NCBI GenBank assembly: GCA_046756385.1
Contig: JBHHWG010000003.1
Span: 6,298-70,297 of the forward strand
DNA length: 64,000 bases
Direction of reading: 5' to 3'
DNA from: Sphingomonadales bacterium
Lineage (GTDB): Bacteria > Pseudomonadota > Alphaproteobacteria > CAZZKF01
Position numbers and translations under genes: made by a program. The notes beneath the pieces are model-generated. The model saw only the letters and a program-made list of their open reading frames with translations, was not told the DNA's origin and ran no database searches. Positions 15,611 through 33,724 of this stretch are shown here, one piece after another; the first letter of the stretch is position 1; every line of letters starts with the position of its first letter.

Positions 15611-15659
15611 CACGACCAACTCCTGTTTTCGCTGTGCTTGAGCCCACGCCCGGACCGTG

Positions 15660-17015
15660 CTAGATCTTGAAATCATAGTGCCTGACCAGATCGTAAAATG
15701 TCGGACGACTGATGCCCAAAAGCTTGGCTGCGTGAGAGATATTCCCGTCTGACTGGACCAGGGCACGCTGAATCGCCTGGCGGTCGGCATCTTCCCGCGC
15801 CTGTTTCAAGTTGAAAATCGGCCGATTGACCTCAACGTCAAGAAAGTCCAGATCGGTCGCTGTAATCCGTTTGCCATCGAAAATGATGACGGCGCGTTTC
15901 ATCCTGTTTTCCAGTTCGCGAACATTGCCGGGCCAATCGTGTTTTTCGATGCTCGCCAATGCCCCGGAGGTAAACCCCTTGACCGGTCGCCCCATTTCCC
16001 GGCCATATTTGTGGAGAAGGTTGTGCGCCAGAAGCACGGCGTCACCCTGCCTGTCCTTGAGCGGCGGGATCTTGATTGTGATTTCACTCAAGCGATAAAA
16101 CAGGTCCTCGCGAAAGCGGCCTTCGGCGATCCGCGCCACCAGGTCTTGATGGGTGGCGGAGACCACCCGGACATCGACTGAAATCTCTTTTCGGCCCCCG
16201 ACCCGTTCGATCACCCGCTCTTGCAGAAAACGCAATAGTTTGACCTGCAGGGCGAGCGGCAAATCCCCTATTTCATCCAGAAAGAGGGTGCCCTTCTCGG
16301 CAAGTTCGATCTTGCCCGGCGTCTGTTTGACAGCCCCGGTAAAGGCGCCCTTTTCGTGCCCATAAAGCTCGCTTTCCAGGAGATTCTCGGGAATTGCGGC
16401 ACAATTGATAGCGACGAACGGGCCTTTTTTGCGCGGGCTAAGGTCATGAACCGCGCGTGCCAGCAATTCCTTGCCGGTGCCACTTCCCCCCACGAAAAGG
16501 ACACTGATTTCGGCCCGCGCCACTTTCTCCACCATTTCGCAGACCTCTATCATTTCAGCACTGCCGGTGATGACGCCGCTGAGTGGGGATTTCCTGTCCG
16601 ACCGGGCCAAAGCACGGTTTTCCGCCTCCAGTTCCGCCAAATAAAAAGCGCGACTTACGATCAAGCCCAGAACCTCCGGCTCGGCGGGTTTTTGGCAGAA
16701 GTCATACGCCCCGGCGGCGATCGCCCGCAGCGCATTCTGCCGATCCTCGTTTCCGGTCACGACCACGACCTTGGCGTCAGGGGCCAAATGAAGAATCCGC
16801 TCAAGTGTCCTGAGACCTTCGGTGGCCCCGTCAGGGTCGGGCGGCAAGCCGAGATCGAGCGTGACCACCTTCGGTTCCGCCGCGCGTAGTTGTGCGATTG
16901 CGGAATCATGATCCTCGGCAATCACGACCTTGTAATCTTCGAAATTCCAGCGAAGCTGCCGTTGAAGCCCCTTATCGTCTTCAACAACCAACAGGGTTTT
17001 CTTTTGTTCGCTCAT
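15660..17015 (-). CDS. prsR: Sigma-54-dependent response regulator (NtrC/AtoC class), PEP-CTERM-box regulator PrsR-like
   Basis: Has a receiver domain (LLVVEDDKGLQ...D...), an AAA+ sigma-54 interaction domain with the GAFTGA motif (EKGAFTGAVK) and a Walker A (GGSGTGKE), and a C-terminal Fis-type HTH. ATG 17015 overlaps the prsK stop as ATGA. Confidence 0.9.
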   Translation of the reverse strand: MSEQKKTLLVVEDDKGLQRQLRWNFEDYKVVIAEDHDSAIAQLRAAEPKVVTLDLGLPPDPDGATEGLRTLERILHLAPDAKVVVVTGNEDRQNALRAIAAGAYDFCQKPAEPEVLGLIVSRAFYLAELEAENRALARSDRKSPLSGVITGSAEMIEVCEMVEKVARAEISVLFVGGSGTGKELLARAVHDLSPRKKGPFVAINCAAIPENLLESELYGHEKGAFTGAVKQTPGKIELAEKGTLFLDEIGDLPLALQVKLLRFLQERVIERVGGRKEISVDVRVVSATHQDLVARIAEGRFREDLFYRLSEITIKIPPLKDRQGDAVLLAHNLLHKYGREMGRPVKGFTSGALASIEKHDWPGNVRELENRMKRAVIIFDGKRITATDLDFLDVEVNRPIFNLKQAREDADRQAIQRALVQSDGNISHAAKLLGISRPTFYDLVRHYDFKI

Positions 17016-19164: not shown

Positions 19165-20559
19165 TTACCGTGCTCCTTCAGGCAATAAAATCACTCTCGC
19201 GGTTTGGATCAGGATCAGGAAATCCATGAAAATGCCGCAATTTTTGATGTAGTAGAGATCGAACTGGAGTTTCTGTTTGGCATCCTCGACCGAGGCGCCA
19301 TAAGGATAATTGAGTTGGGCCCAACCCGTAATGCCTGGCTTTACCTGATGCCGCTCTGAGTAATAAGGCACTTCGCGGGTCAAGGATTCGACGAAATATG
19401 GCCGCTCCGGCCGGGGCCCCACCAAACTCATATCTCCTTTAAGGACGTTGAAAATCTGTGGCAGTTCGTCAATGCGGGTCAAACGCAGAACAGTCCCGAC
19501 CCGGGTTGCCCGCGGATCGTTCTCCTGGGCCCATTGCGGTGCGCATTTGGGTTCGGCGCCAACTTTCATGCTCCGGAATTTCAGCAGAGTGAATTCCCGA
19601 CCGTACTGCCCCACCCGCTTTTGCTGATAAAAAATCGGCCCCCGTGATGAAAGCGCAATCGCCAAAGCGGCCACCAAAAAGATCGGAAGCGTAAAAAAAA
19701 GGGAACCCAAACTGACTGTCAGGTCGAATAGCCGTTTCACGGCGCGGTCAAAACGTCCGGCGGCAAACCCGTCCGAATAGATCAGCCAGCTCGGGTCGAG
19801 GGATTCCAGATCAACCAGCCCGGTTTCCCGTTCCACAAAAGTTGAATAATCCGTGATTCCGATGCCGCTGAGTTTGCACGCCAGCAGATCACGGACCGGC
19901 AACGCGCCCCGTCGCTCCTCCGGCGCTGTAATGATTTCATCAATGTGGTTCTGTTTGGCGAAATCGACGAGCGAGACAACGGCTGAAAATTCGTGTGCGT
20001 TTGTGATGGTCATTTCCCGCGGATTCATGCGAAGGAAGCCGACGACCGCAAAACCATGGGTCAGGCCATCCGTCTCAAGGCCTTGCACCCGAAGCGCCCG
20101 TTCACCCGCGCCAAGCACCAGAAGACGATGCTTGAGGGCATTCAGATCAACCAGCCGCGCAAACAGGATTCTGTTTATCAGCAACCCGGCGAACGACGTC
20201 CCATATGAGATAATGAAAATGCTGCGCCATTCCGAGATATCCGGAATCAAATAGAACACCATCGCGAACCACAGAAAGCTCAACCCGAACACGACCATCA
20301 GGCGGCTGACGGATACCCTGAGATCGCGACAAGCGTCGCGCTGATATAGTCCCAGGGCAACCATCGCGATGGTCAGCACAGTCACAAAGTGAGCGGCTTC
20401 GCCAAGTCTTTCGTCGAACGCCGCCGGTACATTTTTCAGCTCCAGCAAGCGAATGTAGTAACCCGCATAATAGGCGGCGAACAATACAGCGATATCCAAC
20501 ACGCCAAGGGCCAGAACCGACTTTGGGACATACTGCTTGAAGATACGGATCATGCCCAA
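19165..20559 (-). CDS. Polyprenyl-phosphate sugar phosphotransferase (bacterial sugar transferase; PEP-CTERM-associated EpsB-type priming enzyme)
   Basis: Four to five N-terminal TM segments precede a C-terminal WbaP/EpsB-type domain (KRLFDL...GPIFYQQKRVGQYGREFTLLKFRSM...DELPQIFNVLKGDMSLVGPRPERP). Confidence 0.88.
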   Translation of the reverse strand: MGMIRIFKQYVPKSVLALGVLDIAVLFAAYYAGYYIRLLELKNVPAAFDERLGEAAHFVTVLTIAMVALGLYQRDACRDLRVSVSRLMVVFGLSFLWFAMVFYLIPDISEWRSIFIISYGTSFAGLLINRILFARLVDLNALKHRLLVLGAGERALRVQGLETDGLTHGFAVVGFLRMNPREMTITNAHEFSAVVSLVDFAKQNHIDEIITAPEERRGALPVRDLLACKLSGIGITDYSTFVERETGLVDLESLDPSWLIYSDGFAAGRFDRAVKRLFDLTVSLGSLFFTLPIFLVAALAIALSSRGPIFYQQKRVGQYGREFTLLKFRSMKVGAEPKCAPQWAQENDPRATRVGTVLRLTRIDELPQIFNVLKGDMSLVGPRPERPYFVESLTREVPYYSERHQVKPGITGWAQLNYPYGASVEDAKQKLQFDLYYIKNCGIFMDFLILIQTARVILLPEGAR

Positions 20560-20801: not shown

Positions 20802-23216
20802 TTATAATGAGCGGCCCGGCCGATCGAGCTTCAGCAGCAAGGCAGGCAGCAGCATAAAGTCCGCCGGCAAGGCAATGGCAATTGTCACGGAGGCCAGAAC
20901 CCCCATCCCCCAGGTCGGTTGAAATCCGGACATCGTAAGCGTCAGGAAACCGGCGACCAGAACGAGCGTGGTGATCAGCAGCGCTTTTCCGACATTCAGG
21001 AAGGCATACCGAATTGACGCCTCCGGCCCGAGACCAAGGCTCCGGCGCGCGCGAAGATATTTGCTGAGCAGATGAATTGTATCATCGACGACGATACCAA
21101 AAGTCACCGCGGCGACGATCGATATCGCCACGCCAACCTCGCCCACAAGAAAGCCCCACAGGCCGAACGCGGTTACCGCCGGAACAAGGTTGGGCACCAG
21201 GCTGATCAGGCCCACTTTGACGCTGCGCAGGGCGATGATAAGGATGGCGGATACCAGACATAGCGCCAGCATCGTCCCCCATAACATGCTGCGAATATTC
21301 CGGTCCGACAAATGCGCGAACATGATCGGCACCCCGGTCCCCTTCAGCGGTTCGTGAAGGCCGTGGCCGGTCCCGGCGCTGTGTTTGTCGTTATCGGCTG
21401 CAAACCAGGCCGCCGCGCGTTTATCAAACGTCCTTAGCTGCCGCGAAGACAGCCCCCGGGTGGCCACGCTCACCCTGGTTCCCAATTTGGCGACGTCAAT
21501 CCGATCATTGAGATCCAGGCCGAACGGCAAGGACATCTCGTAAACGAGCAGATACTGCGCGGCGAGCGCCGCGGTTTCCGGAAGCCTGAAATGGCCCGGT
21601 TCATCGCCGTTGAAATTCTTGTTAAGCCGCTTGAGTATCTGCGTGATCGCCCGAACGTTCACGACTTCGGGCTGACGCTCAGCCCATGCCACGAACCGGT
21701 CGACCCGCTCCAGATAAGCCGGTTCGTATATGCCGCTGTCTTGTCCCGACTCGATGACATATTCGACAACATTGACCCCGGTCAGACGTTCGCGCACGAA
21801 ATCCGTATCCCGCCTCAGGGAAAAGCTGTGGTCGAAATACTCGACCCAGCTATCGTTGAGCTCAATTCTCGAAAGCCCTGTCATAAGGCCGATGACGACC
21901 GCCAAACACCCCCAGAACAGAACACGATGGCGCCGCGCCACGGCCCCGTGCCACCGCGACAAAACATGATGAAAGCGCACCGGGCGGCCCTTTCCCGCCG
22001 TCGCCGAAAACATCGACATCAGCGCCGGCAGAAAGACCACCGCGCAAAAAAAGCCGGCGCCGACACCGACCGCGACCAGATTGCCCAGATCGCGAAACGG
22101 TTTCGAATCGCTGGCGTTTAAACTGAGAAAACCAATCGTTGTGGTGGCGCTGGTCAGGAACACGGGCCACAGATTGGTCTCCAACGCCTCAATGACCGCC
22201 CGATACCGCGAGCCGCCATGGGCCTGCCGCTCAAAAAAAGACGTTAAAATGTGGACGCTGTTGGCGACCGCCAGCGTCAGCACGATTGTCGGCGCCGCCG
22301 CTGAGCCAGGATTCAGGACCAATCCCGACCAGCCCGCGAGGCCCAAAGCCGTCGACGCCGCGACAATGGCCACCGACAACACCGCCGCCATCCCCGCCCA
22401 GGACCGCAATAAGAGAGCCATCATGACCGCAATGACCAACAGCATGACCGGAAACAAAGTCGTGAGTTCGCGCCTCGTCGCCTCGGCAAAAGCGTCGGAC
22501 ATCATCACCGACCCGGTGAGGTAAAATCTGATTTCCGGGAAACGCTTCATAAGGCGCGACGTCAACAAGCGCACATGAGCGGCGGCCTGCTCGGCGGCTT
22601 GCCGCTGGCCCTCGCGATAGATCAAATTCACCACCACGCCGGTGACGTCGCCGCCCGGTGAAACGATCAGGCCGTTGAGCATCGGCTCGGACAGCGCGGC
22701 TTCCCGGACCGCCCGCAGTTCATCATCGCCAAGACCGGCCGCGCCGACAACCAGGTCACGGATGATCAGATCGTCCTCGAAGGCCCGCGAATATTGGAAA
22801 TTCGTAAGCGAGTCGACACGGGCGGCGAACGGAATCCGCCACGCCTGTTCCGTCAACATCTCGACAGCCGACAGGACTTCCCGGGTAAAAACGTCACCAT
22901 CGCGCGGCGCCAGCACAATGAGCAGATCATTGGATTCGGAAAAACGCCCCTCAAGCGCCTCGAACGCCAGCCGAAATGGGTTGTGTTTACCGAAAAAAAC
23001 GCGACTGTCAGTGGTGTGTTCGACCCGCGTGATGCCCGCGCCGACAGCCCCAACCATAAGAATGGTCACCAGGATTACCGCCCAACGCCACCGTATGGCG
23101 GCCAAGCCCAGGCGGCGCGGCAAGGCGCGTGACGGCTTCACACTTCCCGTGTTTGTTTTTTCAGTGACACCGGGCATTTGCATCAACCAGACGCTGGTCC
23201 GGTCTCCACACTGCAT
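20802..23216 (-). CDS. RND-superfamily exporter, MMPL/HpnN-like (HAE3-type) with two 6-TM bundles
   Basis: The roughly 800-aa protein has duplicated TM clusters separated by large soluble loops, the typical MMPL/SSD architecture. The start is ambiguous (Met1, Met12 or Met14). Confidence 0.82.
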   Translation of the reverse strand: MQCGDRTSVWLMQMPGVTEKTNTGSVKPSRALPRRLGLAAIRWRWAVILVTILMVGAVGAGITRVEHTTDSRVFFGKHNPFRLAFEALEGRFSESNDLLIVLAPRDGDVFTREVLSAVEMLTEQAWRIPFAARVDSLTNFQYSRAFEDDLIIRDLVVGAAGLGDDELRAVREAALSEPMLNGLIVSPGGDVTGVVVNLIYREGQRQAAEQAAAHVRLLTSRLMKRFPEIRFYLTGSVMMSDAFAEATRRELTTLFPVMLLVIAVMMALLLRSWAGMAAVLSVAIVAASTALGLAGWSGLVLNPGSAAAPTIVLTLAVANSVHILTSFFERQAHGGSRYRAVIEALETNLWPVFLTSATTTIGFLSLNASDSKPFRDLGNLVAVGVGAGFFCAVVFLPALMSMFSATAGKGRPVRFHHVLSRWHGAVARRHRVLFWGCLAVVIGLMTGLSRIELNDSWVEYFDHSFSLRRDTDFVRERLTGVNVVEYVIESGQDSGIYEPAYLERVDRFVAWAERQPEVVNVRAITQILKRLNKNFNGDEPGHFRLPETAALAAQYLLVYEMSLPFGLDLNDRIDVAKLGTRVSVATRGLSSRQLRTFDKRAAAWFAADNDKHSAGTGHGLHEPLKGTGVPIMFAHLSDRNIRSMLWGTMLALCLVSAILIIALRSVKVGLISLVPNLVPAVTAFGLWGFLVGEVGVAISIVAAVTFGIVVDDTIHLLSKYLRARRSLGLGPEASIRYAFLNVGKALLITTLVLVAGFLTLTMSGFQPTWGMGVLASVTIAIALPADFMLLPALLLKLDRPGRSL

Positions 23217-23261
23217 TACCCGGACAATAAAATCAATCGGCGCATCCAGCCTGTGTAAAAC

Positions 23262-23289
23262 TTGAAAAAATACAAATCATTGCGATAAT
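23262..23289 (+). promoter_or_regulatory. Candidate sigma-70-type promoter for the second TPR gene
   Basis: TTGAAA (23262-23267), a 16-nt spacer, then GATAAT (23284-23289), in the divergent intergenic region. Confidence 0.35.
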
Positions 23290-23394
23290 GTATTACTTCT
23301 CTTTCCGTAGCTCATGATGGCCAGAACCTATCGCTCCACGAACTCGATTGTGCGCCCAGCGCACCCGACGCATTCAATTCGAGGGTCCGGTTCC

Positions 23395-26226
23395 ATGTTC
23401 ACGAAAATACCCAAGCCAGAAGTTCGGAATTTTGGGATTCAACGCTCTAAATTCCGGCGCGGCCTGGCCCTGGTCGCATTTATCGTGGTGGCCCTGAGCG
23501 CATGCGACAACGCGGCAAACTTGACGGCCGAGGAGTATCTTCTAAGAGCCCGCGAATTTCAGGTCGCCGGAGATTTGCGCTCCAGCATTATCGAACTGAA
23601 AAATGCGCTGCAGAAAAACCCTGACAGCTCGGCCGCGCGCTTTCTTCTGGGTGGCATTTATTTGGAAATCGGCGAAGCGGAGGCCGCCGAAAAGGAGTTG
23701 CTGCGGGCGATCAGTCTCGGGATGGGCCGGACGTCGGTGGCCCTGTCGCTCGGCCGGGCGTGGCTGATGCAGGGGAAATTCCAGAATGTGCTGGAGGAGA
23801 TTTCCTTCGAATCCGGCGATTCAAACAGCTACAAGGCCTCGGTTCTCGCCTTGCTTGGCGACGCCTATCGCGGTCTGCGAATGCCGGGCGAGGCCGAAAA
23901 GTCGTTTCGCGCCGCGCTTGAAGTCGACGCAAATTCTCATGTGGCCCGGGTCGGCCTGGCCCGAGCCTACAAGGACCTCGGTGATTTGATCCAGGCAGAG
24001 GCGTATTTGCGCCAGGCTCTGGAGATTGCCCCTCAGGATTTCCACGTCAGGTCCTTACAAGGCGATCTCGCATTTGCCCGTGGCGACCATGAAGATTCGG
24101 AGCGGATCTACGCCGCGCTGCTGGCGGAAAATCCGAATTACCATGTCGCTCGAATGGGCCTGGCGCTGGCTCAAATCGGCGCACAAAAATACGACAACGC
24201 CAAAAACAACCTGGCGGCTCTGTTAAAAGTCTCCCCCAACCACGCCTATACCAATTTTCTGCGGGCTCTGGCCGCCTACCTGGATGGTGAATATGAGGAC
24301 GCGAAGACCTTCGGGGACAAGGTTTTCCGTCAGGAAAGCGCTCACCTGCCCACGCTTCTGGTGGCCGGAGCAGCAAGTTTCGCACTCGAACAGTTCGAGC
24401 AGGCGGCGAACTACCTGCTGCAATTTGTCGATCAGGTTCCCGACCATATGACAGCCCGAAAATTATTGGGTGGCACGCTGTTGCGGCTTGGTCAGTCGCG
24501 GCAGGCTTTCACCATCCTCGAACCACTTGCGGATAAAGACACCGGCGACGCCGAGCTGCTGACCATGGTTGGCGCCGCCGCCGTCCGGAGCGGCGACATC
24601 GCCAATGCCGGCCGATATCTCAGAAGCGCGGTTGCGCTTCGCCCACACGACGCCGCGCCATTGCTGCAGCTTGGCACTATCAGAATGGCGCTCGGGGAGA
24701 CGGAGGAGGGCTTAACCGACATCGAACGCGCGATCACGCTGGAACCCGGAAAGGAAGCCAACGAAATCGCCTATATCGGCATCCTGCTGCGGGCAAAGGA
24801 GTTCGAGCGGGCCCTGACGGCGGCGCGGCAGCTGGAGGCTCGACAGCCAGCAAGCCCCATTGGCGCGACCCTGGCTGGCCAGGCCCTGACTGGACTAAAG
24901 GATTTCGCCGGCGCCGAGGCCGCCTTCAGGAAGGCACTGACAATTGACCCCGGATTTTTCGAGGCCACCCACTATCTGGCGGTGATGGCATTGGGCCACG
25001 GTCAGCCCGACAGGGCGCGCTCCCTTTATCACGGCCTTTTGAAACACAAACCGAAACATCTGAACGCCTTGCTCAGCCTGGCCCAGCTTGAAACGATTGA
25101 AAAAAACCACGCGGAAGCCGGCCGCCTGCTCGAGATCGTGGTCCAGGACAATCCCGACAATGCAACGCTGCGAATATTGGTTGCTCAGGCCCATCTCAGG
25201 ACCGGCGCGCCCCTGAAGGCGCTTTCGGCGACCAACCAGATCCTGGAGAAATTTCCGCGAAATCCGTCGTTGCTGGAGGTCACCGGGAAGGCGCAACTGG
25301 CCGCCGGCCAGGTCGACGCGGCACTGGCAACCTTCGAATCCCTCATCAGATTGCAGTCTCAATCGGCCGCCGCCCGACACATGAAGGCAACCGCGCTTGA
25401 AGCCAGGGGTGATTGGAACGGGGTCGAACAGGCGATCCAGGAAGCCCTGGCCCGGGCCCCCGATTATCTACCAGCGAGGATCCTGGAAACCCGCGCACTC
25501 GGTCGAAAGCAAGACACTGACGCCGCCAGGAAACTGATCGCGGACCTGGCGGTCGAGCACCCCGACCATCCGGAGGTGATCGAACTGCAAGGCAATCTGG
25601 CGCTCCAGCAAGGCAAGTTCGATGTTGCAATCGAACATTTCAAACGGGCTCAACAGGCGGACGCCACCAGCGGGGCAGCGGTAAAGCTGTCATTGAGTCA
25701 GTGGCGGTCCGGAGATCGGCAGGCGGCGTGGGCAACGTTGGAGCAGTGGTTGACAGACTTCCCCAGCGACGTGGCCGTTCGCCTCCAACTGGCCAGCACA
25801 TACGAAGAGACCGGGCGTTTTGAGGATGCGCGGCAACATTATGAAACCGTCATCCGGCAAATGCCGGGGCACTGGATAGCAAGAAACGATCTCGCCTGGA
25901 CGCTCATGAAAATGAAAAAGCTGGACGAGGCGCTTGATCACGCGGAGTTGGCGCATACCGCCAGTTCCTCCGATCCGGCCGTTGCGGACACACTGGGCCT
26001 GATCTTGTTGCGACTCGGTGAAAATTCGCGCGCCGAACGTCTGTTGCGAGAGGCGGCCGATGGCATGCCGGAGGATCAGAACGTTCGCTATCACCTCGCT
26101 CTGGCGTTGTCCCGGGCGGGGAAACAGGAAGAATCCCAGGACCTTCTGAAAAAGATCCTGGCATCCGACCAACCCTTCCCGGAACGCGCCGCCGCACAAG
26201 CGTTGCTGGAGGGTGCCGGCCGTTAA
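23395..26226 (+). CDS. Second PrsT-like TPR-repeat protein, predicted lipoprotein
   Basis: TPR repeats run throughout, and its size and repeat organisation match the prsT product. The signal peptide has a lipobox (LVAFIVVALSAC). GAGGG precedes ATG 23395. The tracked ORF opens at 23314. Confidence 0.8.
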   Translation: MFTKIPKPEVRNFGIQRSKFRRGLALVAFIVVALSACDNAANLTAEEYLLRAREFQVAGDLRSSIIELKNALQKNPDSSAARFLLGGIYLEIGEAEAAEKELLRAISLGMGRTSVALSLGRAWLMQGKFQNVLEEISFESGDSNSYKASVLALLGDAYRGLRMPGEAEKSFRAALEVDANSHVARVGLARAYKDLGDLIQAEAYLRQALEIAPQDFHVRSLQGDLAFARGDHEDSERIYAALLAENPNYHVARMGLALAQIGAQKYDNAKNNLAALLKVSPNHAYTNFLRALAAYLDGEYEDAKTFGDKVFRQESAHLPTLLVAGAASFALEQFEQAANYLLQFVDQVPDHMTARKLLGGTLLRLGQSRQAFTILEPLADKDTGDAELLTMVGAAAVRSGDIANAGRYLRSAVALRPHDAAPLLQLGTIRMALGETEEGLTDIERAITLEPGKEANEIAYIGILLRAKEFERALTAARQLEARQPASPIGATLAGQALTGLKDFAGAEAAFRKALTIDPGFFEATHYLAVMALGHGQPDRARSLYHGLLKHKPKHLNALLSLAQLETIEKNHAEAGRLLEIVVQDNPDNATLRILVAQAHLRTGAPLKALSATNQILEKFPRNPSLLEVTGKAQLAAGQVDAALATFESLIRLQSQSAAARHMKATALEARGDWNGVEQAIQEALARAPDYLPARILETRALGRKQDTDAARKLIADLAVEHPDHPEVIELQGNLALQQGKFDVAIEHFKRAQQADATSGAAVKLSLSQWRSGDRQAAWATLEQWLTDFPSDVAVRLQLASTYEETGRFEDARQHYETVIRQMPGHWIARNDLAWTLMKMKKLDEALDHAELAHTASSSDPAVADTLGLILLRLGENSRAERLLREAADGMPEDQNVRYHLALALSRAGKQEESQDLLKKILASDQPFPERAAAQALLEGAGR

Positions 26227-26231
26227 ATTGA

Positions 26232-28250
26232 TTGGCAAAGTACGCCCGGCTCGGGAAACGGAGTGTTTTGGCTGTGTCCGATCAGTTCGATTACGCCGGG
26301 GCGTTTGATAGAAATATCGGATGGATCACCGAGTTCGAACAGCAAGTCCTTAAAGGCAAAAAGATTGCCATAGCGGGCCTTGGGGGCGTCGGCGGCATCC
26401 ATTTGCTCTCGCTCACCCGACTCGGCATTGGTTCATTTCACATTTCCGATCTCGACAGGTTCGACCTCGCCAACTTCAATCGCCAGATCGGGGCCCATCT
26501 CGGCTCGCTCGGAAAACCGAAGACCGAGGTGCTGGAGGCCATGGCACGGGACATCAACCCGGAAATATCACTCTCCACATTTCCAGACGGGGTTCACGAT
26601 CAGAATCTCGACGCCTTTTTGAACGGCGCCGACCTGTTTGTGGACGGCCTGGATTTCTTTGAGCTCGGAATTCGGTCGAAAATCTTCGCTCGCTGCAGCG
26701 CGCTGGCTATTCCCGCGATCACCGCCGCGCCCATCGGCATGGGGGTGAGCTATCTCATATTCATGCCCGGTCACATGACGTTCGAGCAATATTTTCGCCT
26801 TGCCGGCCTGGCGGCGGACCGGCAGTACGTCAATTTCGCGTTGGGCCTGACGCCAAGGGCGTTTCATCGATCCTATCTACTCGATCCCACCCGCCTCGAT
26901 CTGGCGGGCCACCGCGGCCCCTCCAGCATCGCCGCGTGCAATCTGTGCGCCGGCGTGGTTGCGGCCGAGGCGGTGAAAATTCTCTTGCGCCGGGGGCTGG
27001 TGCGTGCCGCGCCCTGGTGTCACCAGTTCGACCCCTATCAGGACAAAGCCCATTCGACTTATCTGTGGTCAGGCAATCGCAACCCGCTTCAGACCGTCAA
27101 GCGGCATATCGGGTACCGGCTCTTCGCCCGCCTGTCCCGCATTGCCCGCCCCTCCTTGGAGAAGGAGGGAACGACCGAAATCGGGAAGATTCTCAGTTTC
27201 GCCAAGTGGGCTCCCAGCGGGGACAACGCGCAGCCCTGGCGATTTGCCATTCGCGATACGGACAAGGTGGATATTTTTCTCGGTGGCCGCGAGCACCACA
27301 ATATTTATGAATATCGCGACGGTGAGCCGACCCTGATGTCGGGGGGCTTTCTCCTCGAAGGGATTCGGATCGCAGCCCGTCGGTTCGGCCGCTCCTGCGA
27401 ATGGCGCCATACCGGCACCGGCCACGATGGCGCCCATGAAATTTCGGTCTGGCTGCCCAAGGACAGGCCGGTCGACCCTGACCCCTTGTTCCCATATCTG
27501 ATGCTTCGTTCGGTGGATCGCAGGCGCTACCGGATGATGCGCCTCACGGACGAACAAAAGCAGGAACTGGAAGCCGCCCTGGGCGCCGGTCTTTCGGTGT
27601 CGTGGTTCGAAACGCCAGGCCAAAAATGGCGCATGGCCCGGATCAATGCCGCCGCCACCGACATCAGACTGCGCCTGGCCGCCGCCCACGAGGTCCATCG
27701 CAAGATTCTGGACTGGAACCACGCCTTCAGCGCGACCGGCGTCCCGGTGGCCAGTCTTGGCCTGGACAGGATGACCGTGCGGCTGATGGCCTGGTTCATG
27801 ACCAATTGGGCGCGCCTCGATTTCGCCAACCGCTTTTTGAATGCGACCGTCATTCCCCGAGTCGAGATGGACTTGCTGCCGGGACTTTATTGCGCCGCCC
27901 ATTTCCTTATCACCTGCAATACCGCCACTGAGAGCGGCAATCGGGAGACCGTGCTGCTGCGCCGGGGTCAGGCCTTGCACCGCTTTTGGCTCACGGCGAC
28001 GCGACTTGGCCTGGTCGCGCAACCCTCATTGGCCCCCCTGTGCTTCGCGAGCCACGCCCGCGAGGGCCAGCGCTTTTCGGATCGGGTTCGGCTGACGCGA
28101 GCCGCCGACCGGCTGGCGGCGCGACTTGATACCGTCAGTGGCGGTCGCGAAATCTGTTTTCTCGGGCGCGTTGGATGGCCCCGGCAGCCTGGCGGGACCT
28201 CACGATCATGGCGCAAGCCGCTGACCGAGCTATTGCAGGGAACCTCCTGA
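26232..28250 (+). CDS. Two-domain fusion: N-terminal ThiF/MoeB/HesA E1-like adenylyltransferase and C-terminal nitroreductase-fold (Acg/SagB-like) domain
   Basis: E1 Rossmann and ATP-binding motifs are present (IAIAGLGGVGG...SDLDRFDLANFNRQ). Nitroreductase signature is WAPSGDNAQPWRF. The start is TTG 26232 (or GTG 26274), 5 nt after the TPR gene stop. Confidence 0.85.
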   Translation: MAKYARLGKRSVLAVSDQFDYAGAFDRNIGWITEFEQQVLKGKKIAIAGLGGVGGIHLLSLTRLGIGSFHISDLDRFDLANFNRQIGAHLGSLGKPKTEVLEAMARDINPEISLSTFPDGVHDQNLDAFLNGADLFVDGLDFFELGIRSKIFARCSALAIPAITAAPIGMGVSYLIFMPGHMTFEQYFRLAGLAADRQYVNFALGLTPRAFHRSYLLDPTRLDLAGHRGPSSIAACNLCAGVVAAEAVKILLRRGLVRAAPWCHQFDPYQDKAHSTYLWSGNRNPLQTVKRHIGYRLFARLSRIARPSLEKEGTTEIGKILSFAKWAPSGDNAQPWRFAIRDTDKVDIFLGGREHHNIYEYRDGEPTLMSGGFLLEGIRIAARRFGRSCEWRHTGTGHDGAHEISVWLPKDRPVDPDPLFPYLMLRSVDRRRYRMMRLTDEQKQELEAALGAGLSVSWFETPGQKWRMARINAAATDIRLRLAAAHEVHRKILDWNHAFSATGVPVASLGLDRMTVRLMAWFMTNWARLDFANRFLNATVIPRVEMDLLPGLYCAAHFLITCNTATESGNRETVLLRRGQALHRFWLTATRLGLVAQPSLAPLCFASHAREGQRFSDRVRLTRAADRLAARLDTVSGGREICFLGRVGWPRQPGGTSRSWRKPLTELLQGTS

Positions 28251-28273
28251 CCGGAACGGCCGAGACCTTGGAC

Positions 28274-28304
28274 AAAAAACCCCCGAGGATTGCCCTCGGG
28301 GGTT
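28274..28304 (-). terminator. Rho-independent terminator of the PEP-CTERM gene (also a hairpin for the convergent plus-strand gene)
   Basis: A 9-bp GC-rich stem (CCCCCGAGG / CCTCGGGGG) closes a 5-nt loop. On the minus strand it is followed by a U6 run (A6 at 28274-28279 on the plus strand). Confidence 0.8.
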
Positions 28305-28324
28305 AGGACTCCCAGTGGTGAGAA

Positions 28325-29200
28325 TCAGGACCGGCGACGTCGACGATGCGCGAGCATCCCCAGGCCGATCAGACCAAATCCGAACAGCGCCATTGCAGTC
28401 GGCTCTGGAATTGCGGCGCCTCGCAGGTCAACCGACCCACCCAGCGGGAAATTCGAGACCGGGATCGTGGCGAAGGACGACCCAAGCAGGAAGTCCTGGC
28501 CGCTTGGCTGACCATTGGTATCGAAATTGGTGTTAGCGACGCCCGGGCCAAAAATATCGACATCAAAGAAGCCAGACCCCGTGCCGCTGCTGACAGTGCT
28601 CAGATCGCCCGCCACGGCCAGGAAGATAGTGGAGACCAGCGTGATTGCCGGGCCGGCGCCTGAGAAGCAGGTCGCATCGCAGACCGTACCCGTGCCTGCT
28701 CCCAGGAGATTGACAAACGGCGTGCCATTCGTGGCCGAAGCAATATCACCAGGAATACCGCCACCTGACGCGCCGCCGGAGAAATCCTGGAGCGGGTCGG
28801 AAAACAGGTCCGCGAAGCCGCCACTGAACTCGACAACGGCAACCGTTCCAGCCAATGTTATCCTTTCAACAAGGAACCCCCCGAATTCAAATGTCAGTTC
28901 GCGGCCGTTATCTCCGTTTTGCCAAAATATGACAGCCCCCGAACCATCCTTGACGGCGTCCACTATGCCGACGCCAAACAAGATGTCTCCGGGCAAGACC
29001 ACGATGTTTTCCCAAATTGTTCCGATCTCAAGAATCGAGCCCGGGGAGAACTCGATACCGGCCTTTTTCACGGCTTCCGCTGGTCCCGAGACGGAAATCA
29101 GCGCGGCGCAAAACAGCGCGCTGATGCCTTTGGCGATCCCAACCGAAACATCTCTTTTGATATGTTTAATGAATCCTACCATCTCGATATCCTTTTTCAT
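28325..29200 (-). CDS. PEP-CTERM sorting-domain protein (secreted Gly/Ser/Thr-rich cargo)
   Basis: The C-terminus IPEPTAMALFGFGLIGLGMLAHRRRRRS is a PEP motif, a TM helix and an Arg cluster. An N-terminal signal peptide ends ...SGPAEA. An alternative start at Met7 (29182) has AAGGAT upstream. Confidence 0.88.
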   Translation of the reverse strand: MKKDIEMVGFIKHIKRDVSVGIAKGISALFCAALISVSGPAEAVKKAGIEFSPGSILEIGTIWENIVVLPGDILFGVGIVDAVKDGSGAVIFWQNGDNGRELTFEFGGFLVERITLAGTVAVVEFSGGFADLFSDPLQDFSGGASGGGIPGDIASATNGTPFVNLLGAGTGTVCDATCFSGAGPAITLVSTIFLAVAGDLSTVSSGTGSGFFDVDIFGPGVANTNFDTNGQPSGQDFLLGSSFATIPVSNFPLGGSVDLRGAAIPEPTAMALFGFGLIGLGMLAHRRRRRS

Positions 29201-29298
29201 GGCCCGTACCGCTACCGCGACTTCGTTACCGATTAAGCTTCAGCGGCTGGCCGACGCCGATAGATGCGCAGTCTTTTCCGCTATCCACACGCAATAAA

Positions 29299-29314
29299 TG
29301 CAATTAGTGTGCCA
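29299..29314 (-). promoter_or_regulatory. Consensus sigma-54 (-24/-12) promoter of the PEP-CTERM protein gene
   Basis: The minus strand reads TGGCAC-ACTAA-TTGCA, an exact match to TGGCAC-N5-TTGCA. It is oriented toward the gene, about 100 nt upstream of ATG 29200. Confidence 0.7.
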
Positions 29315-29544
29315 TGCGACAAACCATTACCATTTCAATGCTTTAGCGCCCCAGGCCAACCTGTGAGATTCAAATTTGTAAGATTTTCCGACACCGGCGC
29401 TCGCGGATCATCCGCAACTACGCTTCACCTGCCCCACAACAGGGCGGACTTTCATGTGTTTTCAATCGGTTAGCGCCTGCGAACGGGGGCACCGGGAGTG
29501 TAAAGAAATCCGACAGTCAGATGGTCCGTAATTCGGCCCAGCCG

Positions 29545-30282
29545 CTATTCGGCAACCGCTTTCCAGATGTCAGGCCGGCGTTTGCGCAGCCCGTCAAAAA
29601 TGTCGAGGAATTTGCCGTAGCACGGTTGTCGGAGGCCGTGATACTCGACCAGCGGACCAAAGGGATGAAGATAAACCCCCATGCGCGCCAAGATCCGCAG
29701 CAGCGTTGGCTCCATGATCGCGCACCAGTGGGTGATGCCATTGGCGCGGCTCATTTCAACAATCGCCCGAAACAGCCCGATGGTGACCTCGGGCGTGGAA
29801 CGCCGGTTGCGCGCCTCAGCCAGACTGCCTCGCCGCGACGGGCGGGAATCGGCATAAAGCGTGTCCGAAAGCCGTCTGCGAAATTCCCTGGACACAGTGA
29901 ATCGTGAAATTTCGGCGGTCGTCGCCGCCGGCAACAACCTCTCCGGCCACGGACTTAGTTGAGGACAGGCGCCGAGAATCGGAAATCGGGGGCCATCGTG
30001 GCCGGACAAGGGCAGGACCAGTCGGACCGTGCCAGCCACATCACCGGTTTCACGATGCAGCAACAGGCAGTGGTCCGAATGAGCATCGAATTCATCTTTC
30101 TCGCGGCGGTTCAGGTTGCTGGCGGGGTCCTCGTACGGGCGTTCGACGCAATAGACCTGATAACGGATTTTGTAGACACGGTCTCGCAGCTCGTCCGTGT
30201 CAGCGTGAACCACTTTGAAATGGTGATTATAGCGTTCGGCAAAAGACTTCTTGCCCCCCTGTATGGACCGCGCCTGATGCAT
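29545..30282 (-). CDS. GNAT-fold N-acyl amino acid synthase-like acyltransferase (PEP-CTERM/exosortase system-associated acyltransferase family)
   Basis: Carries LRDRVYKIRYQVYCVE...HSDHCLLLHRETGDVAGTVRLV...AEISRFTVSREFRRR, the pattern of LuxI/NasY-like Acetyltransf_5 proteins that I recall as TIGR03694. Confidence 0.78.
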   Translation of the reverse strand: MHQARSIQGGKKSFAERYNHHFKVVHADTDELRDRVYKIRYQVYCVERPYEDPASNLNRREKDEFDAHSDHCLLLHRETGDVAGTVRLVLPLSGHDGPRFPILGACPQLSPWPERLLPAATTAEISRFTVSREFRRRLSDTLYADSRPSRRGSLAEARNRRSTPEVTIGLFRAIVEMSRANGITHWCAIMEPTLLRILARMGVYLHPFGPLVEYHGLRQPCYGKFLDIFDGLRKRRPDIWKAVAE

Positions 30283-30608
30283 TTAGCTATCCACCGCACT
30301 TTCTTTTTTTCGGCACTGCGCCTCGCTCGAAAAAGAGGCGCCTGGCCCTCAATCGAACACTCGCATTGGACCAGAAATTCCTTGCACTTTTGTTAATCAA
30401 AAACCCATGAAGCGCCCGTGTCGCCAACACAATTACCGATTGTTTTCAACAGCCTTTCACGACCGATCGAGCCCCGATTACCCAGTGGCACAATTTTTTG
30501 TTATACTAGGGAACATGGACCACGCTTTATCCGTCAGGGCCGGACAAGGCGAGCGACCTGCTCCCAAGTCTGGCATCTTTTGCCCGACCAAGGCGCGCCA
30601 GAAAACAA

Positions 30609-31574
30609 GTGATGCTGGTGAACACGAACATACCGGCGGCCCGAGTCCCTCAACCGGACCGTCAAAAGGGTGTTCCGCGAAATTGGCTCGTGAAATATCT
30701 GGCCGTACTTGCCATCGCATCCCTGGTTTGCGGCCAGCCGACGGCCAATCCCATTTCCAGCCAGCCGGAAACACCGGCAAAGCCGTCGTGGACGACCGCC
30801 GCGGTTCATACAGGCCCCGACATTGGGCATGCCATGTCATCCGGGCCACGAAGTGCCGCCATGTGGCTGGACAGTACAACTCCGGTTAGCCCGGAACTGA
30901 GAGGCTCAACTACTGACGCTCCCCTCGCTCCGGTAGTCAATTTCGGTTTTTCAAATGGCGAGAGTCTGGCAAGCGGGGCCGTGGCGTCCGCCGAAGCGGC
31001 TCGGGAATTGCGGGACTGGTCCAGCAGCTTCAACGCCCCCCGACAAAGCGGCTCGGCGGCGGGTCCGAACGGCAGTGGCTCACGCCGGGTTGGCCGGGTT
31101 GCGCCGAGCCCACCCGGCCAATCCCGCCGCACAGCCGTCCAGGCGATTTTCACCGCGGTTGAGGACCCGTTCCTGCGATCGGCCATCACCAACATGGCCC
31201 GCTTGGCAAGCGACGAAAACGCCCGCGCTGAATTCAGCTTTTTCGGGCTGAAAGGCTTCGATATCTTTGGCCAAACCGCCGAAAACGGGGCGCGGAATCC
31301 CTGCGCCACGTCCTGGCGCGACGATTATCCCCCCCCAAATGACGCCGCCTCAGGTCAATCCGGCACACAGGGAGCCACGAGGGCCAGCACCGACCCGGGT
31401 TCATTGCTCCGCGCGCTGTCGCTATTCGTCGAACTGATTAATTTTTTGACCCATCCATTGGTCCTCACCATCGCGTTTCTGGTCGGCCTATTCGGAATCA
31501 CGCTAAAATTGCTTGGACGAGCCAAACGCGCCAAACAGCGCCGTCGATTCTCGATTTACCGGAGAATGCGCTGA
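30609..31574 (+). CDS. Hypothetical protein: N-terminal signal-like segment, low-complexity Ser/Ala/Pro/Gly body, C-terminal TM helix plus a basic tail
   Basis: The 321-aa ORF has GC-rich third positions. N-terminal segment is WLVKYLAVLAIASLVCG. The C-terminus is LVLTIAFLVGLFGITLKLLGRAKRAKQRRRFSIYRRMR. No family was recognised and the start is uncertain. Confidence 0.5.
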   Translation: MMLVNTNIPAARVPQPDRQKGVPRNWLVKYLAVLAIASLVCGQPTANPISSQPETPAKPSWTTAAVHTGPDIGHAMSSGPRSAAMWLDSTTPVSPELRGSTTDAPLAPVVNFGFSNGESLASGAVASAEAARELRDWSSSFNAPRQSGSAAGPNGSGSRRVGRVAPSPPGQSRRTAVQAIFTAVEDPFLRSAITNMARLASDENARAEFSFFGLKGFDIFGQTAENGARNPCATSWRDDYPPPNDAASGQSGTQGATRASTDPGSLLRALSLFVELINFLTHPLVLTIAFLVGLFGITLKLLGRAKRAKQRRRFSIYRRMR

Positions 31575-31587
31575 CTCCACATCTGTT

Positions 31588-32604
31588 TTATCGGTCACCG
31601 CCGATCCATTCCAGGATATCCCGCCACACCACCTCCGCTTGCAGATCGCGCAGCAACATGTGATAGCCGTTTTCATAGATGATTGTCCGTGACGCGCCAT
31701 TCAGTCTTTCGGCCACTTTATGAATAGGTTCAGCCGGTATGATTTCATCGTGCCGCCCGTAGAGAAGCAGAATCGGGACATTGAGTTTGGAGGCATTGCG
31801 ATAAGCCCGTTCCATCAATCCCGTCAAACCATACACCGCGTCGATCCTGGTTTTCTTTATAACCAAAGGGTCACGGCCGAGGGCCCGCAGCATTTCAATA
31901 TTGTCGGACGGCGTGATTTCGAGGCTGCCGCCGGTCACCCTCTTCCAGGGGATGGTGTGCGCGGACAGCCACAGCGCGACCCGATAAAGCGGATTCATCG
32001 AGCTCCATCCCCACACTGCCGGGGCGGCGAGGATGACCCCGTCGACCGGAAGGCGCCCTCCCTCCCCATCACAAAGCGCGGCCATGGCGACGGCGCCGCC
32101 CATGCTCTCCCCCAGGACAAGGACCCGGGCATCGGGGTGTTGGCGTCGAACCGACGATACCATCAGTCTCAGGTCCGACTTCAGGGCCTCGGTCCCGGCC
32201 CAGATTCCGCGCCCGGCAGTGTCACCGAAACCGCGCTGATCGTAAGCATAGGTTGTGATGCCGTGACGCGCCCACCAGGTGGCCGGCGCATCAAACGCCA
32301 TGCGGTAGTCGTTAAAGCCATGGAGCGCGATAATTACCGCCGTGACGGGCCCATCGCCATTCCATTTTTTCACCGGCAGCCGTTGACCGTCCGTGGCCAC
32401 CAACCCGGCAGCGGTGAGGCCCGGCGCCGCGGCCGGATTCGGCTCGACCGCCCCAAATTTCTGCACTTTCGGCGCGCAAACGGCCAGGGACAGCGACATT
32501 CCAATCATGGCGGCGGCTCTCCCCATTGCGCGCCATCCGATCCTGGGCAACACACTCATTGCCGGATTAAGCCTCTTTCCCATGTTTTTCTCCGCTCTGT
32601 CCAC
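31588..32604 (-). CDS. Alpha/beta hydrolase (lysophospholipase / monoacylglycerol lipase-like), probable lipoprotein
   Basis: Has HGFNDY, the nucleophile elbow GESMGG, and a signal with a lipobox-like LSLAVCAP. Confidence 0.85.
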   Translation of the reverse strand: MDRAEKNMGKRLNPAMSVLPRIGWRAMGRAAAMIGMSLSLAVCAPKVQKFGAVEPNPAAAPGLTAAGLVATDGQRLPVKKWNGDGPVTAVIIALHGFNDYRMAFDAPATWWARHGITTYAYDQRGFGDTAGRGIWAGTEALKSDLRLMVSSVRRQHPDARVLVLGESMGGAVAMAALCDGEGGRLPVDGVILAAPAVWGWSSMNPLYRVALWLSAHTIPWKRVTGGSLEITPSDNIEMLRALGRDPLVIKKTRIDAVYGLTGLMERAYRNASKLNVPILLLYGRHDEIIPAEPIHKVAERLNGASRTIIYENGYHMLLRDLQAEVVWRDILEWIGGDR

Positions 32605-32728
32605 CCCCAGAACCTGGTAATCTCGGCGCCGGGCGCCAATACGGCTTGCTTGCCGCGCCTGCTATCGTATAGTTGCAGCCTCTCGCGGAAACGGGGCCGA
32701 TATTGGTATCAGGCCGAGGAAAGGACAC

Positions 32729-33724
32729 ATGAACGATTTACCGGCCACAGTGCGATTCTACGACTTTAGACCGACCGCGCAATCGTTTGGTGATGCAGTC
32801 GCCGAGGGCTTGCGCAAGGACCAGAAATCCATCCCGTCCCGGTTCTTTTACGATGATCGCGGGTCCGAACTGTTCGAGCGCATTTGCGAGCTTGATGAAT
32901 ATTACGTGACCCGCACCGAGCTGTCGCTGCTGCGGGAAACCAGCGCCAAAATCACCCGGCATATGGGCCGGAATCGTGACGTCGTCGAGTTCGGATGCGG
33001 CTCAAGCGCCAAGGTGAGGGCCGTGCTCGATGCGGCCGACCAGCCGTCGTCCTACTGCGCGATCGACATATCCAAAAGTGCCCTTCTAACCCTCGCCCGG
33101 GAACTGGCCGACGCCTATCGCGCCCTCGAAATCATCGCCGTTTGCGCGGACTACACGGCTCAGCTTTCCTTGCCGGGCACGAACGGCGGCAGCCTTAAAT
33201 CGAGCGAGGGCCAGGCCAAAGTCGGTTTCTTTCCGGGCTCCACGATCGGCAACTTCACACACAAGGACGCCGAACAGTTCCTCCAAACCGCCGCCAGCAT
33301 GCTGGGTCCCGGCGGCAGCCTGATTATCGGGGTCGACCTGAAAAAGGACATCCGGACGCTGGAAGCAGCCTATGACGACGCCAAGGGCGTCACCGCGCAG
33401 TTCAACCTCAATCTGCTGGCGCGCATCAACCGGGAGCTTGGAGGCAAAATCGAGCTTTCGTCATTTCGCCACAAAGCATTTTTCGACCCGGTCGAGGGCC
33501 GGGTCGAGATGCATCTGGAAAGTCTGGTCGATCAACACATTGCGCTGGAGGGCATGGAGGTCCGTTTAGCCGCGGGCGAGACCATTCATACCGAGGACTC
33601 CTACAAATACACGATCGACGAGTTCAAGGCGTTGGCGTCAAGATGCGGCTTCGAACCAGTAGCGGCCTGGACCGATGATGATGCCTTGTTCAGCATCCAC
33701 TATCTCACGGTCGCCGCAGGCTAG
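32729..33724 (+). CDS. egtD: EgtD-type SAM-dependent L-histidine N-alpha-methyltransferase
   Basis: Carries FYDDRGSELFERICELDEYYVTRTE...VEFGCGSSAKV...TEDSYKY, typical of the EgtD/DUF2260 family. Confidence 0.82.
   Translation: MNDLPATVRFYDFRPTAQSFGDAVAEGLRKDQKSIPSRFFYDDRGSELFERICELDEYYVTRTELSLLRETSAKITRHMGRNRDVVEFGCGSSAKVRAVLDAADQPSSYCAIDISKSALLTLARELADAYRALEIIAVCADYTAQLSLPGTNGGSLKSSEGQAKVGFFPGSTIGNFTHKDAEQFLQTAASMLGPGGSLIIGVDLKKDIRTLEAAYDDAKGVTAQFNLNLLARINRELGGKIELSSFRHKAFFDPVEGRVEMHLESLVDQHIALEGMEVRLAAGETIHTEDSYKYTIDEFKALASRCGFEPVAAWTDDDALFSIHYLTVAAG

Follow-up and report, generated by a model that had tools for sequence, protein, structure and literature searches.

A 64,000-nucleotide stretch of a Sphingomonadales genome (contig JBHHWG010000003.1), called the window throughout, holds at positions 20,802–31,574 and beside them a set of genes that we read, with a probability of about 0.78, as the regulatory arm (PrsK/PrsR/PrsT) of a PEP-CTERM system of XrtA type in which an oxzA/oxzB pathway for oxazolone lipids is embedded. 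An earlier note on this DNA had described the region as a non-canonical accessory module made up of an RND exporter, a PrsT-like lipoprotein, an E1–nitroreductase fusion, a PEP-CTERM protein, a synthase of N-acyl amino acids (NAS) and a tail-anchored protein, with a chemistry thought to be undescribed. Every gene that it named was found in place by open reading frame (ORF) listing and profile scans. The chemistry, however, has a published counterpart, as a ThiF–nitroreductase protein and an N-acyltransferase together form the OxzA/OxzB oxazolone pathway, which has been reconstituted in vitro; further counterparts are TyzACB and TrzAS of mycobacteria and the stieleriacine cluster, in which NAS, ThiF, nitroreductase and PEP-CTERM genes lie together. 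Each component of the locus, and each pairwise link between components, is already published or curated. The NCBIfam scans on which the gene assignments draw covered ORFs of at least 200 residues judged to be likely genes, and Pfam scans were added.

The pathway was established by de Rond, Asay and Moore (2020/2021), who named the ThiF–nitroreductase di-domain protein OxzB and the N-acyltransferase encoded upstream of it OxzA. In vitro, OxzA made N-decanoyl-tyrosine, which OxzB turned into tyrazolone only when ATP was present, and E. coli produced oxazolones with the oxzAB pairs of five species, Skermanella aerolata among them; Pseudoalteromonas rubra was also a source. Oxazolones hydrolyse within hours; they are labile and inducible, and their discoverers proposed them as signals. 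For the mycobacterial enzyme TrzS, which binds flavin mononucleotide (FMN), mutagenesis places cyclisation before an FMN-dependent desaturation.

The fusion protein of the window, about 660 residues long, joins a ThiF adenylating domain and an Acg-like flavin oxidase domain in a single polypeptide. It matches Pfam ThiF (PF00899, 119.6 bits) and Nitroreductase (PF00881, 34.7 bits against a cut-off of 23.5) and passes NF006077 (390 bits, cut-off 266), and its C-terminal part (residues 320–667) scores 90.6 bits with an Acg-family model. Against the PDB, an 18-member profile matches, among others, TcdA, ThiF and MoeB with its N-terminal part and Acg (2ymv) with its C-terminal part. Across the 18 aligned homologues, G35, G37, G38, G40, G41, N69-R70-Q71, K83 and D120/D124/D127 are invariant; this set covers the GxGxxG, NRQ and Asp motifs, so the nucleotide-binding motifs of the ThiF/E1 domain are intact. 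The family is large, with 1,782 database matches at E ≤ 1e-10, most of them about 50–57% identical. The closest tie to biochemistry is a Skermanella protein (P0077), 52% identical over 97% of the length, which is S. aerolata by its NCBI name and may not be the exact strain or sequence expressed by de Rond et al. Judged by sequence, the fusion is an OxzB-type oxazolone synthetase. Its longest ORF starts at TTG 26232, 5 nt behind the stop of the preceding PrsT gene, and P0001, the called protein, begins at GTG 26274, which a GGAG precedes, 47 nt from that stop; the 5-nt gap of the earlier description thus holds for the longest ORF and not for the called start.

The partner acyltransferase passes TIGR03694 (240.7 bits against 111.95, residues 16–244), whose curated name is "PEP-CTERM/exosortase system-associated acyltransferase", and also matches Pfam Acetyltransf_5, FeeM and Autoind_synth (31.4 bits). 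A full-length comparison with the product of the gene immediately upstream of oxzB in Skermanella gives 38% identity (E 4e-59). Because that gene itself passes TIGR03694, as the window protein does, what chemists call OxzA and what curators call the "exosortase-associated acyltransferase" form one family. The enzyme earlier labelled "LuxI/NasY-like" is the OxzA partner of OxzB. The link between NAS and PEP-CTERM genes is recorded in the name of TIGR03694 and was reportedly published in 2011, with NasY, by Craig, Cherry and Brady.

Variants of both enzymes were seen among related loci. A second NAS type (FeeM, 181 bits) takes the place of TIGR03694 in Nitrosospira and some other loci. The family NF011425 (PRK14852, 989 residues) is a three-part fusion of a FeeM-type NAS (profile positions about 79–227), then ThiF, then nitroreductase, seen with ORFs 8961–9821 of locus L056 and 8654–9532 of L026; NF011425 and NF006077 are both still named "hypothetical protein" in NCBIfam. 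In Janthinobacterium, Ferrovum and other Betaproteobacteria (L037, L041, L046, L050, L062, L066 and L067), OxzB is split into a ThiF-only ORF of about 290 residues and a nitroreductase-only ORF of about 365 residues, and behind the split pair of Janthinobacterium come PEP-CTERM genes of EDSAP-1 type, in tandem, and a gene for a GT1 glycosyltransferase.

To place the locus among its relatives, we applied tblastn, motif searches and clustering of ORFs to the best 80 of 559 oxzB loci confirmed in a genome scan, a set that spans Alpha-, Beta- and Gammaproteobacteria, Planctomycetes, Myxococcota and Omnitrophota. In 57 of them the sequence extends 3 kb or more past oxzB in each direction, and in 49 it extends 9 kb or more. 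An NAS gene is found no more than 500 bp from oxzB in 33/57 loci and no more than 3 kb away in 38/57, and a PEP-CTERM ORF within 500 bp in 21/57 and within 3 kb in 30/57. Counted in 1-kb bins of distance from oxzB (bins 0–8), the PEP-CTERM ORFs number 21, 6, 1, 1, 1, 2, 0, 2 and 2. Some PEP-system marker, meaning a PEP-CTERM ORF, PrsT, PrsK, PrsR or EpsB_2, is present within 10 kb in 35/49 loci, with PrsT in 19/49. The adjacent PEP-CTERM proteins are mostly of one kind: 27/33 match the PepA flocculation model at E ≤ 1e-5, and the others are of THxN or EDSAP-1 types. In Skermanella the order is oxzA, oxzB and a convergent PepA-like PEP-CTERM gene, followed 5 kb on by XrtA-EpsI with FemAB-like, deacetylase and ATPase genes. 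The window's own arrangement, with oxzA 1.3 kb downstream of oxzB on the opposite strand beyond the PEP-CTERM gene, is common to L044, which repeats the order PrsK, EpsB_2, RND, PrsT, OxzB, PEP-CTERM, OxzA, hydrolase, EgtD at 39–63% protein identity. The earlier note had named a lack of synteny in every related genome as the outcome that would speak against its module; the whole order recurs.

The window holds two full PrsT copies, both above the equivalog cut-off, one near PrsR and one joined to oxzB. In a neighbour-joining tree (drawn without support values), the PrsR-adjacent PrsT proteins, among them the window's first copy, form a clade apart from an oxzB-adjacent clade that contains the window's second copy and those of L044, L009, L025, L028 and L029; in the last three the PrsT gene sits between the NAS gene and oxzB. 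By this phylogeny, a separate PrsT paralogue clade travels with oxzB.

The PEP-CTERM protein ends in the expected fashion, with IPEP, a transmembrane stretch and RRRRRS, and matches PF07589 and TIGR02595 (22.3 bits against 16). It was also tried against the PepA equivalog (NF033554, floc_PepA), where it scores 42.7 bits over residues 103–287, below the cut-off of 80 bits, and is a distant relative. Aligned along its full length with the PEP-CTERM protein encoded beside Skermanella oxzB, it shows 28% identity (E 2e-9); its identity to the corresponding neighbours in L003, L025, L028 and L029 is 34–38%. A single-sequence structure model of the protein had a predicted local distance difference test (pLDDT) score of 34.7, too low for use. 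Its promoter had been called a perfect sigma-54 promoter, and rightly: TGGCACACTAATTGC, 99 nt upstream of the ATG, is the sole zero-mismatch TGGCAC-N5-TTGC in the 64 kb. A TCTTACA lies 62 nt upstream of the TGGCAC, one mismatch away from TTTACA; the comparison was made with the 3′ end only of the 17-nt motif 1, and we presume this element to be the PrsR enhancer site. Haft et al. (2006) described just such a layout, with a motif ending in TTTACA, a spacer of 62.8 nt on average and a sigma-54 motif that stands about 71 nt before the start codon, mostly of single-gene PEP-CTERM operons, and the window gene, a one-gene operon with its own terminator, fits it. A gene and promoter of this kind are ordinary features. 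Across the oxzB loci, sigma-54-type sites stand upstream of 18/45 PEP-CTERM genes (40%), 4/52 NAS genes and 6/714 other genes (0.8%).

Four loci, from Nitrosospira and a few other bacteria (L026, L045, L056 and L080), have a TGGCAT-N5-YTGC sigma-54-type site of their own upstream of the NAS gene in an NAS–oxzB operon. This suggests that the PrsR regulon of these bacteria includes the lipid pathway, and co-regulation of NAS–oxzB with PEP-CTERM genes is plausible there.

The regulatory context is equally conventional. In the profile scans, the 64-kb window contained no exosortase, Wza-like, chain-length-determinant, EpsI, FemAB-like or deacetylase gene, and a tblastn search of the whole window with exemplars found no exosortase, Wza-like, chain-length, FemAB-like or deacetylase gene. 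Of a complete XrtA/PEP-CTERM exopolysaccharide (EPS) locus, with its exosortase, EpsI, Wza-like exporter, chain-length determinant/tyrosine kinase and ATPase, none of the parts is present in the 64 kb, so the list of missing genes drawn up earlier is correct for the window. What had been concluded from it, namely a non-canonical system, does not follow: because prsK/prsR lie near EpsH in only 3/13 genomes (Haft 2006), the absence of an exosortase within 64 kb is the usual situation and no evidence for an unusual one. The locus is an ordinary PrsK/R/T arm and not a defective PEP-CTERM system.

Set beside the systems already described, the window resembles several in part. With the OxzA/OxzB pair it shares a TIGR03694-type acyltransferase and a ThiF–nitroreductase fusion above the NF006077 cut-off, at 38% and 52% identity to the Skermanella pair; it differs in that PrsT precedes oxzB and an MMPL-type RND gene adjoins. 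The M. tuberculosis systems TyzACB (Rv2336–Rv2338c) and TrzAS (Rv1356c/Rv1355c) likewise combine N-acylation, ThiF cyclisation and flavin-dependent desaturation, and TrzS is fused in the same way; whereas the window protein reaches only 126.5 bits on the Rv1355c model (cut-off 476), and the mycobacterial literature that we read describes no PEP-CTERM context. The putative stieleriacine cluster of the planctomycete Stieleria maiorica (MIBiG BGC0002080) has NAS, ThiF-family, nitroreductase-family, transporter and PEP-CTERM genes in one neighbourhood, and its authors noted the EPS/PEP-CTERM link; there, however, ThiF and nitroreductase are separate, four NAS genes and methyltransferase and desaturase tailoring genes are present, and the paper mentions no PrsK/R/T. 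TIGR03694/NasY carries the same association of NAS with PEP-CTERM. On the regulatory side the likeness is to the PrsK/R/T and PEP-CTERM box of Haft (2006) and the pepA–prsT and epsB2–prsK loci of Aquincola, as four window proteins pass the equivalogs, the TTTACA-like element, 62-nt spacer and sigma-54 site are in place, and the genes are remote from an exosortase; the second PrsT paralogue, joined to oxzB, sets the window apart from these loci.

In the mechanism that we propose, OxzA would N-acylate an aromatic amino acid from an acyl-coenzyme A, and the ThiF domain of OxzB would use ATP to adenylate and cyclodehydrate the N-acyl amino acid. The flavin domain of OxzB would then desaturate the product to a 4-arylidene-2-alkyl-oxazol-5-one, and hydrolysis of this would yield an N-acyl-dehydro-amino acid; all of these steps are established for the family and assigned here by homology. 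The PrsT paralogue is probably co-transcribed with oxzB, the MMPL-type RND protein may move the lipid into or across the envelope, and the PepA-like gene would be expressed from its PrsR/sigma-54 PEP-CTERM box. The exosortase and EPS export genes would lie elsewhere in the genome, as usual. We envision that the lipid and the PepA-like protein work in one common surface, matrix or floc process because of the adjacency statistics, because a Methylomonas knockout of a TIGR03694-type gene loses a polysaccharide band, and because floc formation in Aquincola (2023) requires pepA, prsT, epsB2 and prsK.

Several observations weigh against this reading. The amino-acid and acyl specificities are not readable from the proteins, and the product is assigned by homology. 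The canonical pair has oxzA upstream of oxzB, whereas here the PEP-CTERM gene stands between the two and oxzA is on the opposite strand. A motif search found no sigma-54 site before oxzA or the PrsT–oxzB unit, which gives no sign of co-regulation with the PEP-CTERM gene in this window. No PEP-system marker occurs within 10 kb in 14/49 oxzB loci, for example in Pseudoalteromonas ardens (L072), and the export role of the RND protein draws on adjacency in few genomes. Finally, in the work of de Rond et al., adding flanking genes left the products unchanged, and cells exposed to the compounds showed no phenotype.

Other roles can be assigned to the same genes. The oxazolone, or the N-acyl-dehydro-amino acid left by its hydrolysis, could be a diffusible or membrane-borne signal detected by the multi-pass sensor PrsK, in an autoinducer-like loop that switches on PEP-CTERM genes. 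The distant relation of OxzA to LuxI and the discoverers' own proposal for these labile, inducible compounds point this way, the literature names no PrsK ligand, stieleriacines change biofilm composition, and the sigma-54-type sites of the four NAS–oxzB operons are what positive feedback would lead one to expect. The neighbourhoods fit such a loop less well, as oxzB lies far closer to the PEP-CTERM structural gene than to prsK (within 500 bp in 0/57 loci and within 10 kb in 9/49) or prsR (within 10 kb in 8/49). The pathway also occurs in Planctomycetes, Actinomycetota and Pseudoalteromonas, where PrsK/R would not be expected, and the compounds produced no phenotype when added to cells. We consider a signal of this kind possible but unlikely.

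Alternatively, OxzAB might have no functional link to its neighbours and form an independent stress-response lipid cluster in a variable region of EPS and surface genes. The loci without a marker would then need no further account, and neither would the indifference of the products to flanking genes or the different promoter types in the window, which are sigma-70-like before PrsT–oxzB and sigma-54 before the PEP-CTERM gene. Chance placement is nonetheless hard to reconcile with an adjacency that recurs in Alpha-, Beta- and Gammaproteobacteria and a planctomycete and falls off steeply with distance, with a dedicated PrsT clade that travels with oxzB, with the phenotype of the Methylomonas knockout, and with the same NAS association having been reached independently by the curators of TIGR03694. 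We regard the absence of any link as improbable.

The earlier note's own suggestion was of a modification or lipidation chemistry linked to PEP-CTERM sorting; in such a reading, an unsaturated azlactone would be an electrophilic acyl donor for the PEP-CTERM protein or EPS, with the PrsT paralogue as periplasmic adaptor. Azlactones react with amines as a matter of general chemistry, about 40% of loci have a PepA-like gene directly beside oxzB, the oxz operon of L025, L028 and L029 has PrsT inserted within it, and recombinant PepA runs as three bands, which its authors read as post-translational processing and modification. Nothing in the present analysis shows a PEP-CTERM protein to be lipidated. 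In an alignment of the 33 adjacent PEP-CTERM proteins no residue is invariant outside the sorting signal and no conserved Lys or Cys acceptor is visible, which is a mild argument against a fixed lipidation site. The two Oxz enzymes are soluble and presumably cytoplasmic (OxzB was soluble when purified), whereas the PEP-CTERM protein is exported; the oxazolones hydrolyse within hours; and no lipid adduct has been reported. We give lipidation very little weight.

Most ThiF-family enzymes adenylate the C-termini of proteins or peptides, and ThiF, MoeB, MccB and PaaA are among the PDB matches, but a role of the E1–nitroreductase of this ubiquitin-like or ribosomally synthesized and post-translationally modified peptide (RiPP) type is rejected as scarcely credible, since in vitro the substrates of close relatives in the family are free N-acyl amino acids, the gene conserved next door encodes an NAS, and the 80 oxzB loci yielded no family of conserved small ORFs to accompany the E1 gene.

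Under the preferred reading, the oxazolone pathway embedded in a PrsK/R/T arm, the transporter is a candidate lipid exporter, and an export role is a reasonable proposal given that M. tuberculosis tyzACB adjoins the MMPL transporter gene mmpL9. The called protein has 755 residues (804 in the longest ORF), shows the MMPL fold of the HpnN/MmpL exporters with a sterol-sensing-like region, and stays below the cut-off of every named NCBIfam family. The "HpnN-like" identity proposed before was rejected, as it scores 106.7 bits on TIGR03480 (cut-off 751.85) and 56.4 bits on NF052374 (cut-off 1100). An RND gene is near oxzB in only 3/49 loci with at least 9 kb of flank and stands beside the oxzB locus only in the window, L044, L007, L011 and L043; it is not a conserved part of the module. 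Lipid-type exporters more broadly, either RND or a MacB-type ATP-binding cassette (ABC) transporter with a LolA-like protein, occur within 10 kb of oxzB in 11/49 loci. The genes that recur together in many taxa are those for the acyltransferase, the E1–nitroreductase, a PEP-CTERM protein and a PrsT paralogue; the RND link stays within a single clade.

RND homologues are normally found in operons with a LolA-like protein (PF17131) and a protein of about 400 residues, and three of them (46–50% identity) are in such operons with no Oxz or PEP context. This usual three-gene operon (L081–L083; L007, L043) includes the LolA-like protein (PF17131/DUF1329) and the 400-residue protein without a family, and in P0152 (1053 residues) the RND and LolA-like parts are fused. 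The two partners were not found in the window; the window and L044 carry the RND gene alone. In 15 loci, including L023, L024, L026, L043, L065, L078 and L080, a macrolide-type GT1 glycosyltransferase gene adjoins oxzB, often together with a MacB-type ABC permease and a LolA-like protein, which hints at glycosylated oxazolone-derived lipids; glycosyltransferase neighbours were also mentioned by de Rond et al.

The tail-anchored protein, an orphan ORF, is doubtful as a member of the module. It is of low complexity with an ambiguous codon-position pattern (G+C of 0.66 at third and 0.58 at second positions). A search of 5.8 billion clusters found no homologue but itself, as a 237-residue product starting at residue 85, and similarity to the ORF in the same position in L044 is confined to 40 C-terminal residues (E 0.001). 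Of the description "secreted tail-anchored protein", the C-terminal transmembrane stretch and polybasic tail are borne out and the N-terminus is uncertain. About 110 nt upstream, at 30486–30501 (+), stands TGGCACAATTTTTTGT, a sigma-54-like sequence with its −12 element displaced by one base and TTGT in place of TTGC, probably non-functional.

Features of the window in and around the PEP-CTERM and oxazolone locus; gene coordinates are those of the longest ORF where the called start differs.
Feature	Position	Strand	Basis
Three GT4 glycosyltransferases	7147–10720	−	Profile scan
Weakly ZorA-like membrane protein	10974–12791	+	Profile scan
PrsT, first copy	12800–15790	−	TIGR02917, 759.8 bits (cut-off 312.2)
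PrsR	15660–17036	−	TIGR02915, 693 bits, above cut-off
PrsK	17012–19105	−	TIGR02916, 734 bits, above cut-off
EpsB_2 priming transferase	19165–20559	−	TIGR03013, 530 bits, above cut-off
MMPL/HAE3 RND transporter	20802–23216 (called 20802–23069)	−	Pfam MMPL, 114.7 bits
Sigma-70-like site before PrsT–oxzB	23262–23289		Sequence match
PrsT, second copy (TPR lipoprotein)	23314–26226	+	TIGR02917, 702.3 bits (cut-off 312.2)
ThiF–nitroreductase fusion, oxzB-type	26232–28250 (called 26274–28250)	+	Pfam, NF006077
Intrinsic terminator after PEP-CTERM gene	28278–28304	−	12-bp stem with 8 G-C pairs, then T run
PEP-CTERM protein, distantly PepA-like	28325–29200	−	PF07589, TIGR02595
Sigma-54 (−24/−12) promoter of PEP-CTERM gene	29300–29314	−	TGGCACACTAATTGC, zero mismatch
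TCTTACA, presumed PrsR enhancer site	29377–29383	−	Resembles TTTACA end of Haft's motif 1
N-acyl amino acid synthase, oxzA-type	29545–30282	−	TIGR03694
Orphan ORF without family	30609–31574	+	No Pfam or NCBIfam match
Hydrolase_4 esterase	31588–32604	−	Profile scan
EgtD	32729–33724	+	Profile scan, 378.6 bits

Several neighbouring genes were noted in passing. The Hydrolase_4 alpha/beta-hydrolase gene adjoins oxz genes in three loci, namely the window, L044 (about position 15812, −) and L034 (about 1014, +), directly upstream of the NAS gene in L034; as a speculation, the enzyme could open the azlactone ring by hydrolysis or provide acyl groups. The EgtD histidine methyltransferase gene has no recognisable EgtB gene adjoining it and is in the same position in L044, and an ORF at 31720–32769 (+), with no family match and overlapping the hydrolase gene on the opposite strand, is probably a shadow ORF. 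The 605-residue ZorA-like protein between the glycosyltransferases and PrsT matches ZorA (anti-phage Zorya, MotA-like) weakly, at 87 bits against a cut-off of 250, and a partial counterpart stands beside the PrsT and glycosyltransferase genes of L036. At 44607–46418 (−), 16 kb from the PEP-CTERM locus, a 603-residue protein carries a TIGR02466-family domain at its C-terminus, fused to PrsT-like TPR repeats that score 131 bits, below cut-off. The remaining window genes serve metabolism and transport and are unrelated, and an Rfam scan of the window gave no family at the gathering score.

What the comparison adds is a wider association of oxzB with PepA-like and PrsT genes, a modest and testable lead on what oxazolones are for, which the natural-product literature calls "a major unresolved question". 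A literature search for PEP-CTERM together with ThiF and nitroreductase returned nothing, and within the oxazolone papers in our reach, which did not include the final journal version of de Rond et al. or Craig 2011, none linking oxazolones to PEP-CTERM was found. Two lines of research, natural-product chemistry and the study of exosortases, describe one gene pair without citing each other in the searchable literature, and exosortase researchers know only an "associated acyltransferase". The present loci join both fields, with oxzB beside PepA-like PEP-CTERM genes, a dedicated PrsT clade and XrtA in Skermanella, in a form that can be tested in floc- and biofilm-forming bacteria; in the window itself, two genes labelled "hypothetical" or "ThiF family" gain a defined chemistry. 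The recurring PEP-CTERM link suggests where oxazolone lipids act; they may serve as a signal to PrsK, as covalent modifiers or as surfactants in the matrix. A bolder proposal, which we put forward tentatively and hold to be rather unlikely, is that oxazolone lipids are dedicated parts of the proteobacterial PEP-CTERM/exosortase system, serving as the PrsK ligand or as a reactive lipid transferred to PepA-like proteins or the matrix, with the oxzB-linked PrsT as periplasmic adaptor and delivery by RND or ABC/LolA-like transporters. If true, this would give oxazolones a physiological role and PEP-CTERM sorting and regulation a chemical input.

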